Translations under genes and position numbers: made by a program
DNA from: a virus
IMG/VR virus record: IMGVR_UViG_3300002835_000024
Strand: one strand, 5' to 3'
Length of the DNA stretch: 64,000 nt
Part shown: positions 3,204-23,586 of the stretch, piece by piece
How the letters are laid out: every line of letters starts with the position of its first letter
Numbering within the stretch: the first letter of the stretch is position 1
The notes under the pieces: generated by a model
Seen by the model: the letters and a program-made list of their open reading frames with translations, nothing else
Database searches by the model: none
What the model was told of the DNA's origin: nothing

Positions 3204-3211
3204 TATAAATA
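3204..3211 (+). promoter_or_regulatory. T4-type late promoter
   Basis: Exact TATAAATA upstream of a small ORF. Confidence 0.75.
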
Positions 3212-5095: not shown

Positions 5096-5288
5096 ACCAG
5101 ATTCCGTAAGAAGCACCCTCGTAACTCTGATTGGTAATCTTCTTGCAAAATACAAAACTAGCAAAAAAGATAACACAAAAGAAATTCTCATGCTTGTGGC
5201 GGCGTTAAGTATTATTAATGCAGGAACTGAAGACGATAATAAACAATCACTAGCAGTTGCTAGAAGACTCATCAGCGGAGCAAAATGA
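5079..5288 (+). CDS. Small hypothetical protein
   Basis: ORF coupled to its neighbours; ATG at 5079 follows a GGAGG-like RBS. Confidence 0.5.
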   Translation: MEKENKPDSVRSTLVTLIGNLLAKYKTSKKDNTKEILMLVAALSIINAGTEDDNKQSLAVARRLISGAK

Positions 5289-5669: not shown

Positions 5670-6302
5670 ATGACGCTGGATCAGATCATTACGCAAGTGC
5701 TTTCTATTGCTACTCCGATATCTGCCGCCCTCGTTTATATTATTAACGAAAGGCAAAAAGCCAAAAGACAGAAAAAACAAGACGAGATAGACGAGGCTGA
5801 GAGGGAGAGGTCTTATTCAGAAAGAGTCTCCAATCGTCTGAAAACAGCCGAAGAAACTATCGAAAGATTGACCAGAGAACTGACTGAGGAGAGACTCGGC
5901 CAAAACAAACATGTCATACCCTCAGATATCTTAAGAGATTTTATTGATTCAGATCCTGGCATTTCTTGGGTTAAAAGAAGAATGGCAGAAAACGAATATG
6001 TTATGATAAGATGCTCAAAGGGACACGCCAAAGAAATATTGCAGGGCCCAGCCAGTTTGTATGATGGGAAAACCGATGAAGAAATTTGGGATAAAGAAAC
6101 AGCAGCTGTTTTTACTCAGAACGACGAGAAGGTTTACAAACAACAAGAAGGTATTCATTTAACGGAAAAAACACCAAAAGGCATTTTTGTGGGAAGAAAG
6201 TTTCCAATTAGATTACCTGATGGAGTTGATTATATTGTTGGCATCGGTATTTTTGAGAAAACTTCCGAAAATAGCTTGTCTAAACTGATAGAAGAAGTAT
6301 AA
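5670..6302 (+). CDS. TM + coiled-coil + PAS-domain protein (holin-like candidate)
   Basis: N-terminal TM, charged coiled coil, then a PAS_4-like pattern FIDSDPGISWVK...GKTDEEIW..E.A..F..ND..V...RKFPI...IVGIG. Confidence 0.6.
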   Translation: MTLDQIITQVLSIATPISAALVYIINERQKAKRQKKQDEIDEAERERSYSERVSNRLKTAEETIERLTRELTEERLGQNKHVIPSDILRDFIDSDPGISWVKRRMAENEYVMIRCSKGHAKEILQGPASLYDGKTDEEIWDKETAAVFTQNDEKVYKQQEGIHLTEKTPKGIFVGRKFPIRLPDGVDYIVGIGIFEKTSENSLSKLIEEV

Positions 6303-8579: not shown

Positions 8580-10439
8580 ATGAAAGATTATCAAAAAATT
8601 ATTGCAGTTTCTAAGTATGCGAGATGGTTGGAAAAGGAAAATCGCAGGGAAGTTTGGGAAGAAACTGTTCAACGATATTGCGATAATGTCCTCAGCAAAT
8701 GCGTCGATTCCAAGACAGTTGAGCGGATTCGTTTGGCTATTCTCAATCTAGAAGTTATGCCTTCAATGAGAGCTCTTATGACTGCAGGACCTGCTCTTGA
8801 TAGGTGCAACGTGGCAGGCTATAACTGTTCTTATCTTCCAATTGACAGTCTGAGATCTTTCGACGAGATGTTCTACGTTACCCTTTGCGGAACAGGCGTA
8901 GGATTTTCGGTTGAGCGGAGAAACGTAGACAAGCTTCCAAGCATTTCAGAACATTTCGAGAAGTCAAATACCAAGATCGTTGTGGGCGACTCAAAGGCTG
9001 GGTGGGCTCGAGCCCTAAAAGAACTTCTTGCTCTTCTTTGGTCCGGACAGGTTCCAGAGATTGATTATTCTTTGGTCCGACCCGCAGGAGCTCCTCTTAA
9101 AACATTCGGTGGAAGAGCTTCAGGCCCTGGTCCTCTAAAAGAGACCTTTGATTATATCATCAAAACAGTAAGAGAAGCTTCTGGAAGAAAACTAAGGCCG
9201 ATTGAGTGCCACGATATCGTTTGTAAGATTGCAGACTGTGTGGTTGTCGGAGGAGTTCGCAGGGCTGCTCTGATCTCACTATCTGACCTTTCTGATAAAG
9301 AAATGGCTTTGGCTAAATCAGGGAACTGGTGGCAGACACACCCCCACAGGTCTCTGGCCAACAACTCAGCTATTTACGATGAAAAGCCCACTCTTTCTCA
9401 GTTTATTGATGAGTGGAAAGCTATCTATGACTCCAAGTCTGGCGAGCGTGGCATCATCAATCGTCATGCTCTGAAAAAGCAAGCTGAGCGAACAGGCAGG
9501 AGAAATAGCGATGTTGCTTTCGGTGTGAACCCATGCGCCGAAATTATTCTCCGTCCATATCAGTTTTGTAATCTTTCAGAGGTCGTAGTTCGTGACACTG
9601 ATACAATCGAAACCTTGAAAACTAAAGTTGAGTTAGCCACAATCATTGGCACGGTCCAATCAACTCTTACTAATTTCAAATATCTCCGCAAAGTCTGGAA
9701 AGACAATTGCGAAGAAGAAAGGCTTCTCGGAGTTTCTCTGACGGGAGTGTTTGATAATATTCTTTCCTTTGAATGGATGCCAGAACTAAAGCAGGTCGCG
9801 ATCGAAACCAATGAGATCTGGGCCAAGAAACTCGGCATCAATCAGTCCGTTTCTATTACTTGTCAGAAACCATCAGGAACAGTTTCAGAATTAGTTGACT
9901 CTGCTCCCGGAGTGCATACTCGTTTCTATAGACACTACATCCGAACAATTCGTTCGAACAATGTGGAAGCTATCACCAAGTTCCTGATTGATCAGGGCGT
10001 TCCTCATGAACCAGATATCATGAAGCCAAATGACCGCATGGTGTTCTCTTTCCCACAGAAAGCTCCCAAAAATGCACTTGTTTCTTCTGATATTGGTGCT
10101 ATCGAACACCTTAATTACTGGATGATTTCTTTCCAGAAGTGGTGCGAACACAACCCATCAGTCACAATTAAGGTTGGTGAAGACGAGTGGCTGGCAGTAG
10201 CAAATTTTGTTTATAACAACTTTGATGATATTGCTGGTATTTCGTTCCTGCCCAAAGACGACAGCGTTTATCAGCAAGCTCCATTCCAGGAAATTGACGA
10301 GGAAACCTATAACAAGTGGGTGGACAATTTCCCCAAAATTGACTGGGATTTATTCCCAAGCTATGAACGAGGGGATCAGACGAAATCAGCAAATGAATTC
10401 GCTTGCGTTTCTGGAGACTGCACGGTGACTGAGATTTAG
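8580..10439 (+). CDS. nrdJ: Class II adenosylcobalamin-dependent ribonucleotide reductase
   Basis: PSMRALMTAG, YNC, GTGVGFS, GGVRRAALI, NPCAEI, CNLSEV, KPSGTVS, C-terminal CxxxxC. No R2 gene is adjacent. Confidence 0.93.
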   Translation: MKDYQKIIAVSKYARWLEKENRREVWEETVQRYCDNVLSKCVDSKTVERIRLAILNLEVMPSMRALMTAGPALDRCNVAGYNCSYLPIDSLRSFDEMFYVTLCGTGVGFSVERRNVDKLPSISEHFEKSNTKIVVGDSKAGWARALKELLALLWSGQVPEIDYSLVRPAGAPLKTFGGRASGPGPLKETFDYIIKTVREASGRKLRPIECHDIVCKIADCVVVGGVRRAALISLSDLSDKEMALAKSGNWWQTHPHRSLANNSAIYDEKPTLSQFIDEWKAIYDSKSGERGIINRHALKKQAERTGRRNSDVAFGVNPCAEIILRPYQFCNLSEVVVRDTDTIETLKTKVELATIIGTVQSTLTNFKYLRKVWKDNCEEERLLGVSLTGVFDNILSFEWMPELKQVAIETNEIWAKKLGINQSVSITCQKPSGTVSELVDSAPGVHTRFYRHYIRTIRSNNVEAITKFLIDQGVPHEPDIMKPNDRMVFSFPQKAPKNALVSSDIGAIEHLNYWMISFQKWCEHNPSVTIKVGEDEWLAVANFVYNNFDDIAGISFLPKDDSVYQQAPFQEIDEETYNKWVDNFPKIDWDLFPSYERGDQTKSANEFACVSGDCTVTEI

Positions 10440-22061: not shown

Positions 22062-22092
22062 TTGACTTATAGGTCAGAAAAAGGTATAAATA
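22062..22092 (+). promoter_or_regulatory. Dual sigma70/late promoter
   Basis: TTGACT-N17-TATAAATA. Confidence 0.7.
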
Positions 22093-22096
22093 GGTT

Positions 22097-22208
22097 GTAG
22101 TAGAGTTTCGATGACGATGATCTGGACCAATGAATTTTGGCGTTAGACTAAGATCTCCTTATTTTGGGAGTACGTGGGGGTGGATCCCACTCGTTGTTGA
22201 ATGACTAC
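22097..22208 (+). ncRNA. Putative structured tRNA-like non-coding RNA
   Basis: Has its own promoter. Ends pair (GTAGT/ACTAC; TTCGATGACGA/TCGTTGTTGAA), with a T-arm-like GTGGG-GGTGGAT-CCCAC hairpin and further internal hairpins. Confidence 0.5.
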
Positions 22209-22232
22209 TAATAAATTGCTAGGAGTGTTTGT

Positions 22233-23024
22233 ATGGGTAAATTATTACAAATTATAAAAGAAACTCTTTCTGATTATAAAGTAATAGTTTCGCCTCATCC
22301 CATTCACTATAGGCGTCCTTATGGAATTTCCAATTTAGACTCAGCAATGTCAGAAGCTTCTCGAGTCAAAGCTTCTCCAGTCAGTGCTTTAGAACCAGAT
22401 GAAAAATCTCTAGACGAAATATCAGAAAAACTGACAAAGGACAGGCCAAAAATTTCAGAAACCCAAGCAGGTCATGTTGAAGATTATACTACTGATGAAA
22501 CTGGATCTTCTTATCATATCAATACTTCTCTTATTGACGCGCATAACAATGGAACGCACCCTGAAGGAGATATGATATATGAAGATAAACGAATTCATCG
22601 CACTATTTCAAAATTAACTGAGAATCCAATTGGTCACAGTGTTGATCTTTATTCTGGTGTTGGGTTTGATCCTGAAAAACTATTAGGTGGTTCTTCTAAT
22701 TCCATATTGCATCTACCCGCCCACACATCAACGACACATTCTCCTCTCGTCGCGCTTAAACACGCCATGGACAATCGTCCGAGAACTGGCAAAGGTAATG
22801 GGAATGCTGGCAACACAGCCCACATAATTAAAATTTCTACCACACCAAAAACAAAAGGATTTCATGTTGGTGATTTGTCTGAGTTCAATAATGAACGAGA
22901 AACAATTTTACCAGCCAAAACAAACTTGATACATTCACATACAACAATGCATACAGATGAGAATAATCCAAATATAAAAGTGAAAATACATCATTTTGCG
23001 GTTCATTCTCAGGAAAACGATTGA
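22233..23024 (+). CDS. ADP-ribosyltransferase (Alt/Mod/VIP2-like)
   Basis: YT..., S..IN..L, LYSG (usually YRG), HTSTT (STS-like), ERETILP (ExE). N-terminus LLQIIKE. Confidence 0.75.
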   Translation: MGKLLQIIKETLSDYKVIVSPHPIHYRRPYGISNLDSAMSEASRVKASPVSALEPDEKSLDEISEKLTKDRPKISETQAGHVEDYTTDETGSSYHINTSLIDAHNNGTHPEGDMIYEDKRIHRTISKLTENPIGHSVDLYSGVGFDPEKLLGGSSNSILHLPAHTSTTHSPLVALKHAMDNRPRTGKGNGNAGNTAHIIKISTTPKTKGFHVGDLSEFNNERETILPAKTNLIHSHTTMHTDENNPNIKVKIHHFAVHSQEND

Positions 23025-23051
23025 CAAACTATAAAATATAGGGTATAAATA
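23021..23051 (+). promoter_or_regulatory. Dual sigma70/late promoter for tmRNA
   Basis: TTGACA-N17-TATAAATA. Confidence 0.75.
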
Positions 23052-23056
23052 GTCTT

Positions 23057-23372
23057 AATGATAGTAAACTGATGGGTGTTAAAGCAAGCAAGACGAGGGT
23101 GCGAATCCCTCCGCCTCCACCAAAAGCAGTATGTAAAGGTTGTTGACCTTCATCATATGCTAGCTAGGTAAGTAGAATTCTTACTACATACTGTTTTTGA
23201 TGGGGGCGAATTAGGATCGATTGGTTGTGAATAAATCCAAAGGCTATCCGGATGTTCTCCGTTAAACGAACAAAAACTAGAAATGCCAACGATAACGAAG
23301 TTGCATTTGAGACTCGCCTAGCGGCATGATCTCGACGGGCACGGAGGACGCCTTGGAACAGAAGTTCCTCCA
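23057..23372 (+). ncRNA. ssrA: Circularly permuted (two-piece) tmRNA
   Basis: The T-arm and acceptor 3' end ...CGCCTCCACCA (ends 23122) precede the 5' half GGGGGCGAA (starts 23202). G3:U70 pair present. Tag ORF ANDNEVAFETRLAA* at 23285-23329. The intervening segment is self-complementary. Outer ends are approximate. Confidence 0.93.
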
Positions 23373-23394
23373 CTAATCTTAACATGTTAAAGGA

Positions 23395-23586
23395 ATGAAT
23401 AAAATGAAATATATTGCTGCTGCTCTTGTTCTCTCTCTTGCCGCCTGCTCGCAAGAAGCTCCTGTTGCTCCTCCGGTCGAGCCTGCTCCTCCAGTTGAAA
23501 CACCAACTCCTGTTGCTCCTGCTGAGCCGCCTGCTGTTGTTGAACCTGTCAATCCCGCTGAAGCTGCAACCACTGTAGCTCAGTAG
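23395..23586 (+). CDS. Small Pro/Ala-rich lipoprotein
   Basis: Signal peptide with lipobox LAAC, then a PVEPAPP low-complexity tail. Confidence 0.8.
   Translation: MNKMKYIAAALVLSLAACSQEAPVAPPVEPAPPVETPTPVAPAEPPAVVEPVNPAEAATTVAQ

Follow-up and report, generated by a model that had tools for sequence, protein, structure and literature searches.

Two RNA genes were detected in the window, that is, the whole 64-kb stretch of viral DNA analysed. One is a permuted two-piece tmRNA, the sole call of both ARAGORN and Rfam, and the other, 832 nt 5′ of the tmRNA, is the element described here. An ORF weakly related to ADP-ribosyltransferases lies between them. The window also contains T4-type baseplate genes, and a gp6 homologue that is 38% identical to gp6 of Caulobacter phage Cr30. 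The features of the locus, with the evidence on which each is based (R1 is the covariance model described below), are:

22062-22093, + strand: promoter copy of the element (motif search)
22062..22067, + strand: -35-like hexamer TTGACT, half of one of two such sites in the window (sequence)
22085..22092, + strand: TATAAATA box, 17 nt past the -35 hexamer (motif scan)
22098..22210, + strand: predicted RNA of ~113 nt, window-specific outer stem included (fold; R1 match at 22106-22203)
22098..22103, + strand: outer extension of the closing stem, 5′ strand, 6 bp with 22205-22210 (fold)
22107..22117, + strand: closing stem P1, 5′ strand, 11 bp with 22191-22201, three G:U pairs (fold)
22118..22154, + strand: P2 arm with inserted hairpin P2a and invariant linkers (fold, alignment)
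22127-22140, + strand: hairpin P2a, CCAA/TTGG (fold)
22155..22170, + strand: hairpin P3, CTCCT/GGGAG, in the anticodon-arm position, with a variable short loop (fold, covariation)
22171..22173, + strand: linker TAC; the preceding G closes P3, and GTAC is nearly invariant in the family
22174..22190, + strand: T-arm-like hairpin P4, a 5-bp stem plus a G:U pair, loop GGNGGAT (fold, alignment)
22191..22201, + strand: closing stem P1, 3′ strand (fold, covariation)
22205..22210, + strand: outer stem extension, 3′ strand, pairing with 22098-22103 (fold)
22233..23024, + strand: ORF of 263 aa, weak ADP-ribosyltransferase match (domain search), not part of the RNA family
23021-23052, + strand: promoter copy of the tmRNA (motif search)
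23017..23420, + strand: permuted two-piece tmRNA with the twin promoter (ARAGORN, Rfam)

The original prediction that the element and the tmRNA have the same promoter architecture is borne out. Exactly two copies of TTGAC-(16-20 nt)-GTATAAATAG are present in the window, as compared to 0.01 expected from 100 shuffles, and the combination of a -35 box, a 17-nt spacer and TATAAATA is found at just two sites, before the element and before the tmRNA. In T4 biology, TATAAATA is established as the late promoter. As a -35 hexamer 17 nt upstream lets such a late-promoter box double as a sigma-70 -10 element, the box at 22085-22092 can be read as usable both as a sigma-70 -10 (TATAAA) and as a T4-type late promoter, and the promoter of the element is then legible as early plus late, and as a twin of the tmRNA promoter. 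There are nine TATAAATA boxes in the window, all nine on the + strand and in intergenic gaps ahead of + strand genes. The seven not associated with the two RNA genes (at 3204, 10444, 11456, 32345, 44137, 55502 and 63473) may be late promoters of this T4-like phage; a -35 hexamer like those of the RNA gene promoters is absent from all of them.

The fold calculated by RNAfold for 22096-22215 has an energy of -37.6 kcal/mol (z = -3.06), with 1 of 200 shuffled sequences equally good, and is unaltered by the addition of 60 nt of downstream mRNA. As originally proposed, the ends of the non-coding sequence pair, through the 11-bp stem with its G:U pairs and the outer stem, the latter specific to the window phage. 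The predicted hairpin with a 5-bp stem and 7-nt loop that runs straight into the 3′ strand of the closing stem is present at 22174-22190 (P4), with zero spacer before P1. Two of the additional hairpins claimed, CTCC/GGAG and CCAA/TTGG, are in the fold (P3 and P2a); the third, GATCT/AGATC, is possible and competes with TCTGG/TTAGA. These are two registers for P2, such that register (a), 22121-22125/22143-22147 (TCTGG/TTAGA), excludes register (b), 22119-22123/22151-22155 (GATCT/AGATC), and in the window copy RNAfold prefers the former. There is, as stated originally, no CCA and no clear anticodon arm: a 7-nt anticodon loop is absent, and ARAGORN finds the tmRNA only. The window transcript is modelled as ~113 nt, with a predicted 5′ end 6-7 nt past the TATAAATA box, at the foot of the 6-bp extension of P1, and the 113-nt RNA would thus have paired ends. 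The same layout is seen in the tmRNA gene.

The ribosome-binding site and ATG of the 263-aa ORF are located 10-23 nt past the element, and the ribosome-binding site stays outside the fold. No terminator is present between the element and this ORF in the window, so the two are probably co-transcribed. P4 and the T-rich P1 strand that follows were flagged as terminator-like, owing solely to the P1 sequence of the window copy.

Conservation and covariation of the fold

Relatives were collected by searching for the exact 17-nt T-arm-like hairpin, then with degenerate patterns in viral, metagenome and genome collections, and then with a covariance model, R1. The exact hairpin is present in four IMG/VR contigs, and in these the whole element is kept, with a closing stem that is of other sequence and still complementary. 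The pattern scans and R1 together identified 32 distinct homologues on viral and metagenome contigs. R1 matches the window once, at 22106-22203, with 76 bits (E 1.3e-17); the other members score 81-109 bits, and the window copy is the most divergent member of the family.

In an alignment of 30 sequences, standard pairs occupy 98.9% of the cells, as compared to about 42% (32-44%) when, as a control, the 3′ partners are slid by 1-3 columns. Double (compensatory) changes are present in 15 of the 28 pairs, and the covariation score was reached by none of 500 shuffles. Covariation is strong in three helices. All seven modelled pairs of P1, a stem that varies in length from 6 to 11 bp in the family, have double compensatory changes, as do four of the five main pairs and one inner pair of P3. 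In P4, three of six pairs covary, and five versions of the stem, four of them in L023, L034, L035 and L047, surround the invariant loop GGNGGAT, in which N is variable. P2a is nearly invariant in the relatives (CACG/CGTG), so that CCAA/TTGG in the window represents three double substitutions; in L047, P2a is longer and compensated. In all, ~45 linker and loop positions are invariant. With compensatory changes preserving its helices in 32 homologues, the structure far exceeds what chance would produce, and the folding, homologue search and covariation analysis that had been suggested as checks thus confirm the unannotated, structured non-coding RNA of ~110 nt that had been proposed, now as a conserved family. 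G:U pairs are confined to the element strand, from which it follows that the structure belongs to a transcript running in the direction of the neighbouring tRNA genes.

The order of the parts in the family is P1, TG, the P2 arm with P2a, P3, GTAC, P4 and the 3′ strand of P1. Both registers of P2 are built of invariant letters and so are not distinguished by covariation. By nearest-neighbour energies, register (a), TCTGG/TTAGA, is favoured in all 31 sequences, by 2.4 kcal/mol on average. With register (b), (G)ATCT/AGAT(C), the linkers are 2, 1, 4 and 0 nt, the lengths in a tRNA cloverleaf, with the 5-bp P4 on P1; a T at position 8, a purine at 9 and the G-C pair that closes the T-stem are also tRNA-like. 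A single G:T pair of (a) is disrupted both in L077 and in the second copy in L054, with (b) unaffected, and these variants faintly hint at register (b). In a mutual information analysis, only the predicted pairs and an extra pair in P2a stood out, with no tertiary covariation for position N of L4 or the other unpaired columns.

Genomic context and comparison with known RNAs

At the 33 loci tabulated, the element is on the strand of the neighbouring tRNA and tmRNA genes, the sole exception being one tRNA gene in L037. Members are close to, and in the orientation of, their tRNA, manA or permuted tmRNA neighbours, at distances of 3-15 nt; in the arrays, the gaps go down to 4-5 nt after the CCA end of the upstream RNA and 10-14 nt before the next tRNA. 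The usual order in array-bearing contigs is tRNA-Asn, the element, and then tRNA-Met or a manA RNA; this synteny after tRNA-Asn is largely common descent and so provides few independent observations. A manA RNA directly follows the element on its 3′ side in L012, L015 and L016 and is nearby in L018, L035, L037 and L046, and GOLLD is near the element in L006, L007, L035 and L052. The downstream neighbour of the 31 members other than the window copy is a tRNA, a manA RNA, a tmRNA or an unrelated ORF, and most members have no downstream ORF whatever. One such ORF, L010:1139-2368 (+), begins ~25 nt past the closing stem and encodes an isocitrate lyase (Pfam ICL, E 2.5e-99), an unusual auxiliary metabolic gene for a viral contig.

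Where there is no tRNA array, the element is 3-49 nt from a permuted tmRNA, or is its intervening segment; the window copy is at the greater distance given above. In L023/L065 and in L077, the element is immediately 5′ of the tmRNA, and in L023 a -35/-10-like site precedes it. In L034 it is 49 nt 3′ of the tmRNA. In L047, closed by an 11-bp stem, it constitutes the intervening segment itself, between the CCA that ends the acceptor piece and the GGG that begins the coding piece. No tRNA gene was detected around these five tmRNA-linked contexts, the loci covering 4.7-10.3 kb and the window 64 kb. Without an array, therefore, the element accompanies the sole remaining tRNA-like gene, in any relative position.

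The contigs that carry the element are T4-like: the gp43 polymerase of one is 51% identical to those of cyanomyoviruses, gp32 is present on one, and one encodes a cyclase in common with phages Melnitz and HTVC008M. A search with phrog_219 for typing the carrier contigs had no match, and its controls were equally silent. For contigs of 35-57 kb, CheckV completeness is 18-35%, consistent with genomes of roughly 160-190 kb. Among 185,579 species genomes there was one match, on a 24.8-kb contig binned in a Bacteroidetes MAG, that with 16 tRNA genes and a manA RNA looks like phage DNA.

The phages closest to that of the window, with 68-82% amino-acid identity in a DUF932 protein, keep the order endolysin, DUF1508, tmRNA and have different small ORFs before the tmRNA. 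In these relatives (L079-L083), R1 identified no element; the tmRNA is present, the transferase gene is absent, and two 11.7-bit R1 matches are to the tmRNA coding piece. Nor did R1 identify an element beside the related ADP-ribosyltransferase genes in L001-L005. As the relatives keep the flanking gene order with neither element nor transferase, the element-plus-transferase unit is, judged by gene content, a lineage-specific insertion in a variable region. The DUF1508-tmRNA interval is hypervariable, as seen by comparing window 22062-23020 with L080:7850-8040 and L082:8610-9360, and the small ORFs that replace the unit include a Cys-rich ORF of 39 aa. Homologues of the window tmRNA (73% identity) are present at 9349-9652 in both L082 and L083 but were not called by ARAGORN, which evidently can miss permuted tmRNAs.

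The Rfam scan called for originally assigned no family to the element: with Rfam 15, neither the window copy nor a typical member has a match even at E<=10. Scans of 18 loci at the Rfam gathering thresholds identified tRNAs, manA, GOLLD and tmRNA around the element and nothing on it, so that RF01745, RF02032, RF04321 and RF01849 match its neighbours and never the element, which in L047 corresponds to the unmodelled intervening loop of the tmRNA. A blastn search with the window region and a typical member against 50,697 phage records returned nothing, and R1 found no match in T4, Cr30, phiM12, Melnitz-3, HTVC008M and Sf-CH5. A literature search identified no paper describing the motif; the catalogue of ~8,500 candidate RNAs from IMG/VR (Fremin et al. 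2023; PMC10690425) could include it. As far as Rfam 15, these phage records and the searchable literature show, the family is undescribed. A possible complementarity of the G-rich P4 to the 3′-end of 16S rRNA, noted by eye, was dropped, because these nucleotides are paired within a stem and the match is interrupted by the variable N.

In shape the element resembles a tRNA, yet it is not one, intact or decayed. RF00005 and its clan have no match to the window copy or the typical member at E<=10, and ARAGORN is silent. There is no tRNA anticodon arm, P3 having 5-6 bp and variable loops of 4-6 nt (27 nt in L020), and no canonical T-loop, GGNGGAT agreeing only in the closing G-C pair and purine 57. 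The connectivity is exactly that of a cloverleaf only with the ATCT/AGAT pairing of P2, P1 has 6-11 bp as compared to the fixed 7 bp of a tRNA, and no member encodes a CCA after P1. The reading of the element as a tRNA-mimic non-coding RNA therefore stands in part, for its topology and for its tRNA and tmRNA gene neighbours, and not for the particular RNAs with which it had been compared. T4 species 1 and 2 (rnaC and rnaD), stable RNAs with a tRNA-like 3′ part according to the T4 annotation and sequence, are also small RNAs in the tRNA cluster of a T4-type phage, co-oriented with the tRNAs, a position shared by most of the relatives and not by the window copy, which has no array nearby. However, rnaC ends in a canonical T-arm, in contrast to the GGNGGAT loop of the element family, and homology is not detected: the R1 score on rnaC is 8.6 bits (E ~6), and a search of the whole T4 genome has no match. 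The YrlA and Y-RNA-like RNAs, which Chen et al. reportedly described in 2014, are said to have a tRNA-shaped module and in some cases to be phage-encoded near tRNA and tmRNA genes. The element shares with these RNAs its non-coding nature and such a module, but its T-loop is not canonical, it has no match to a Y-RNA-like or any other Rfam family at E<=10, and a Ro-binding stem was not recognised. The suggestion of a decoy for anticodon nucleases is also unlikely, as the arm in the anticodon position has the variable loop described above.

Phage tRNA islands hold other unusual RNAs, GOLLD, ROOL and manA, which form RNA-only cages; homo-oligomeric cages are formed by manA and GOLLD (doi 10.64898/2026.07.01.735769; PMC12286853). 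These RNAs are, like the element, structured, phage-borne and resident in the same niche, but they are unrelated to it in sequence and fold, and GOLLD and ROOL are far larger. The element adds to them a compact, strongly conserved member of ~95 nt, with a covariation-supported fold, tRNA-like connectivity and the specific habit of residing in or beside permuted tmRNA genes. A structured module at such a gene has a precedent in the glutamine-riboswitch-like domain reported in the ssrA gene of phage Melnitz (PMC9004378), also a two-piece tmRNA gene. The element is, however, not of the glnA type, with no Rfam match, and R1 finds nothing in Melnitz. Ordinary tmRNA intervening segments are unconserved hairpins; that of the window tmRNA is one such, and is not matched by R1. 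For annotation, R1 marks an RNA gene that is missed by Rfam 15 and ARAGORN, and the small size and invariant core make the element an easy target for probing, for crystallography or cryo-EM, and for pull-downs.

Proposed role and alternatives

In the reading that we favour, and to which we give about an even chance, 22098-22210 would be a stand-alone, stable RNA with the connectivity of a tRNA cloverleaf, excised by tRNA-processing enzymes and acting as a mimic for tRNA or tmRNA factors. The element would be transcribed within polycistronic precursors of RNA genes and released by the maturation of its neighbours, through RNase P cleavage where the next RNA begins and trimming past the CCA of the previous one, and the freed element would then act in trans. 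Where there are no such neighbours, a longer closing stem (11 + 6 bp in the window, 11 bp in L047) may serve instead, and in the window phage the element would have its own promoter and form the 5′ part of the transcript of the transferase gene. Most speculatively, the acceptor/T-like minihelix, with a remodelled elbow and no anticodon loop, may constitute a tRNA mimic that binds or titrates a factor recognising tRNA or tmRNA bodies, and so might give the phage control of translation. Such cuts, if directed by a non-decoding, tRNA-like fold, would have parallels in mascRNA and in mitochondrial tRNA punctuation, in which a tRNA-shaped fold directs RNase P and RNase Z to cut a longer transcript, although these examples are eukaryotic or organellar. 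A stand-alone RNA is consistent with the co-orientation, the short gaps, the heterogeneous downstream neighbours and a fold that is the same with or without downstream mRNA. Against it, the window element is, with no terminator, physically an mRNA leader, and the cloverleaf requires register (b), the energetically less favourable in every sequence. Recognition by RNase P, the CCA-adding enzyme or other proteins that bind tRNA is putative, given the variable length of P1, the absence of an encoded CCA and the non-canonical T-loop, and the association with tmRNA could simply reflect the clustering of RNA genes.

The same short distances to adjoining RNA genes would also be expected of a module that acts only in cis, an insulator or processing site at which RNase P, E, Z or III would enter or halt at a fixed point, and which has no function as a free RNA. 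The neighbouring tRNA, manA and tmRNA pieces, or the downstream mRNA, would thereby gain correct and protected ends. The positions 5′ of, inside or 3′ of a permuted tmRNA are where cuts must fall, and the closing stem is longer in L047 and the window, where no tRNA flanks it. This reading is nonetheless unlikely, as ~45 linker and loop positions that are invariant in divergent phages go far beyond the needs of a spacer hairpin, and the element is missing from most phage tRNA arrays and permuted tmRNAs, including those of Cr30, phiM12, Melnitz, HTVC008M, T4 and the relatives of the window phage. We think it rather improbable that the element founds a new functional class tied to the tRNA and tmRNA machinery, whether as a dedicated partner or regulator of the two-piece tmRNA of phages, one that could bind SmpB, alanyl-tRNA synthetase or RNase P via the acceptor/T-like minihelix, or as a self-cleaving ribozyme. 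A new ribozyme that cuts polycistronic RNA-gene precursors beside itself would fit the size (~95 nt), the multi-helix junction with many invariant nucleotides and the two mutually exclusive invariant pairings, all of which resemble small ribozymes, as well as the insensitivity to position of an element that always abuts RNAs needing free ends. It is, however, quite improbable in itself: there is no match to an Rfam ribozyme family at E<=10, no nucleotide is conserved outside P1, where the cleavage site would be, and a cyclic phosphate left after the CCA end of a tmRNA would do harm.

An architectural, self-assembling RNA like manA and GOLLD, oligomerising through invariant palindromes (three GATC and one GTAC), is suggested by the tRNA islands shared with those cage-forming RNAs (doi 10.64898/2026.07.01.735769; PMC12286853) and by the presence of palindromic tetramers in invariant regions. 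As two of the GATC sites can pair intramolecularly and the palindrome count is not clearly above chance, we consider this highly improbable. The structured leader for the ADP-ribosyltransferase gene that had originally been offered as an option, or a riboswitch specific to that gene, would account for the location of the window element between a promoter and a ribosome-binding site, with no terminator before the ORF, but fails at the level of the family. The downstream neighbours of the other 31 members differ, most members having no ORF there and none preceding a related gene; the ribosome-binding site is not in the fold, and in L082 the ORF upstream of the tmRNA directly follows a -35/-10-like promoter with no structured element between. 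Such a leader has only a very slight chance of being correct. Least credible is a decayed, functionless tRNA or tmRNA pseudogene, the outcome named originally as contrary to a functional RNA: the cloverleaf-like connectivity and the nearby tRNA and tmRNA genes are as expected of such a relic, but there is no match to a tRNA model, and the core, invariant and unlike that of a tRNA, and the compensated stems are strictly conserved in phages whose closing stems have no common sequence, with flanks and stems divergent enough to exclude the homologues being one recent clone.

The tmRNA link provides a concrete hypothesis as to how T4-like phages of aquatic bacteria might manipulate translation or RNA processing. 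For the window phage only, a weaker idea by analogy is that the element might be an RNA that the co-transcribed ADP-ribosyltransferase attaches to host proteins; ModB of T4 attaches NAD-capped RNA to host proteins.

Additional features of the tRNA islands

Ending in ...CCGRCCA, a further conserved unit of ~75 nt precedes the element by 3-4 nt and has some compensatory changes. It is present at L017:967-1051 (-), L018:5748-5832 (-), L035:5546-5630 (+) and L006:2316-2399 (-), and also in L020, L037, L042, L054 (two copies), L060 and L063. The L035 copy has no match to an Rfam family at E<=10, and the unit may be another unnamed RNA of the same tRNA islands. Just 3′ of the element, many loci have a short hairpin with the conserved loop CCGCCCGTA, at L035 ~5726-5750, L032 ~10370-10395, L007:356-376 and L054 ~5205-5232 (-), and also in L046, L052, L060 and L063; without a T-run, it is not an obvious terminator.

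ARAGORN also predicts tRNAs with the anticodon CTA (labelled Pyl) at L020:119-196 (-) and L035:4636-4710 (+), and these amber-suppressor-like tRNAs in phage arrays may hint at stop-codon reading. A predicted tRNA gene is located within each of the GOLLD matches, L007:844-1304, L006:1177-1643 (-), L052:1105-1574 and L035:3611-4082, in line with tRNAs having been noted in the GOLLD linker (PMC12286853).
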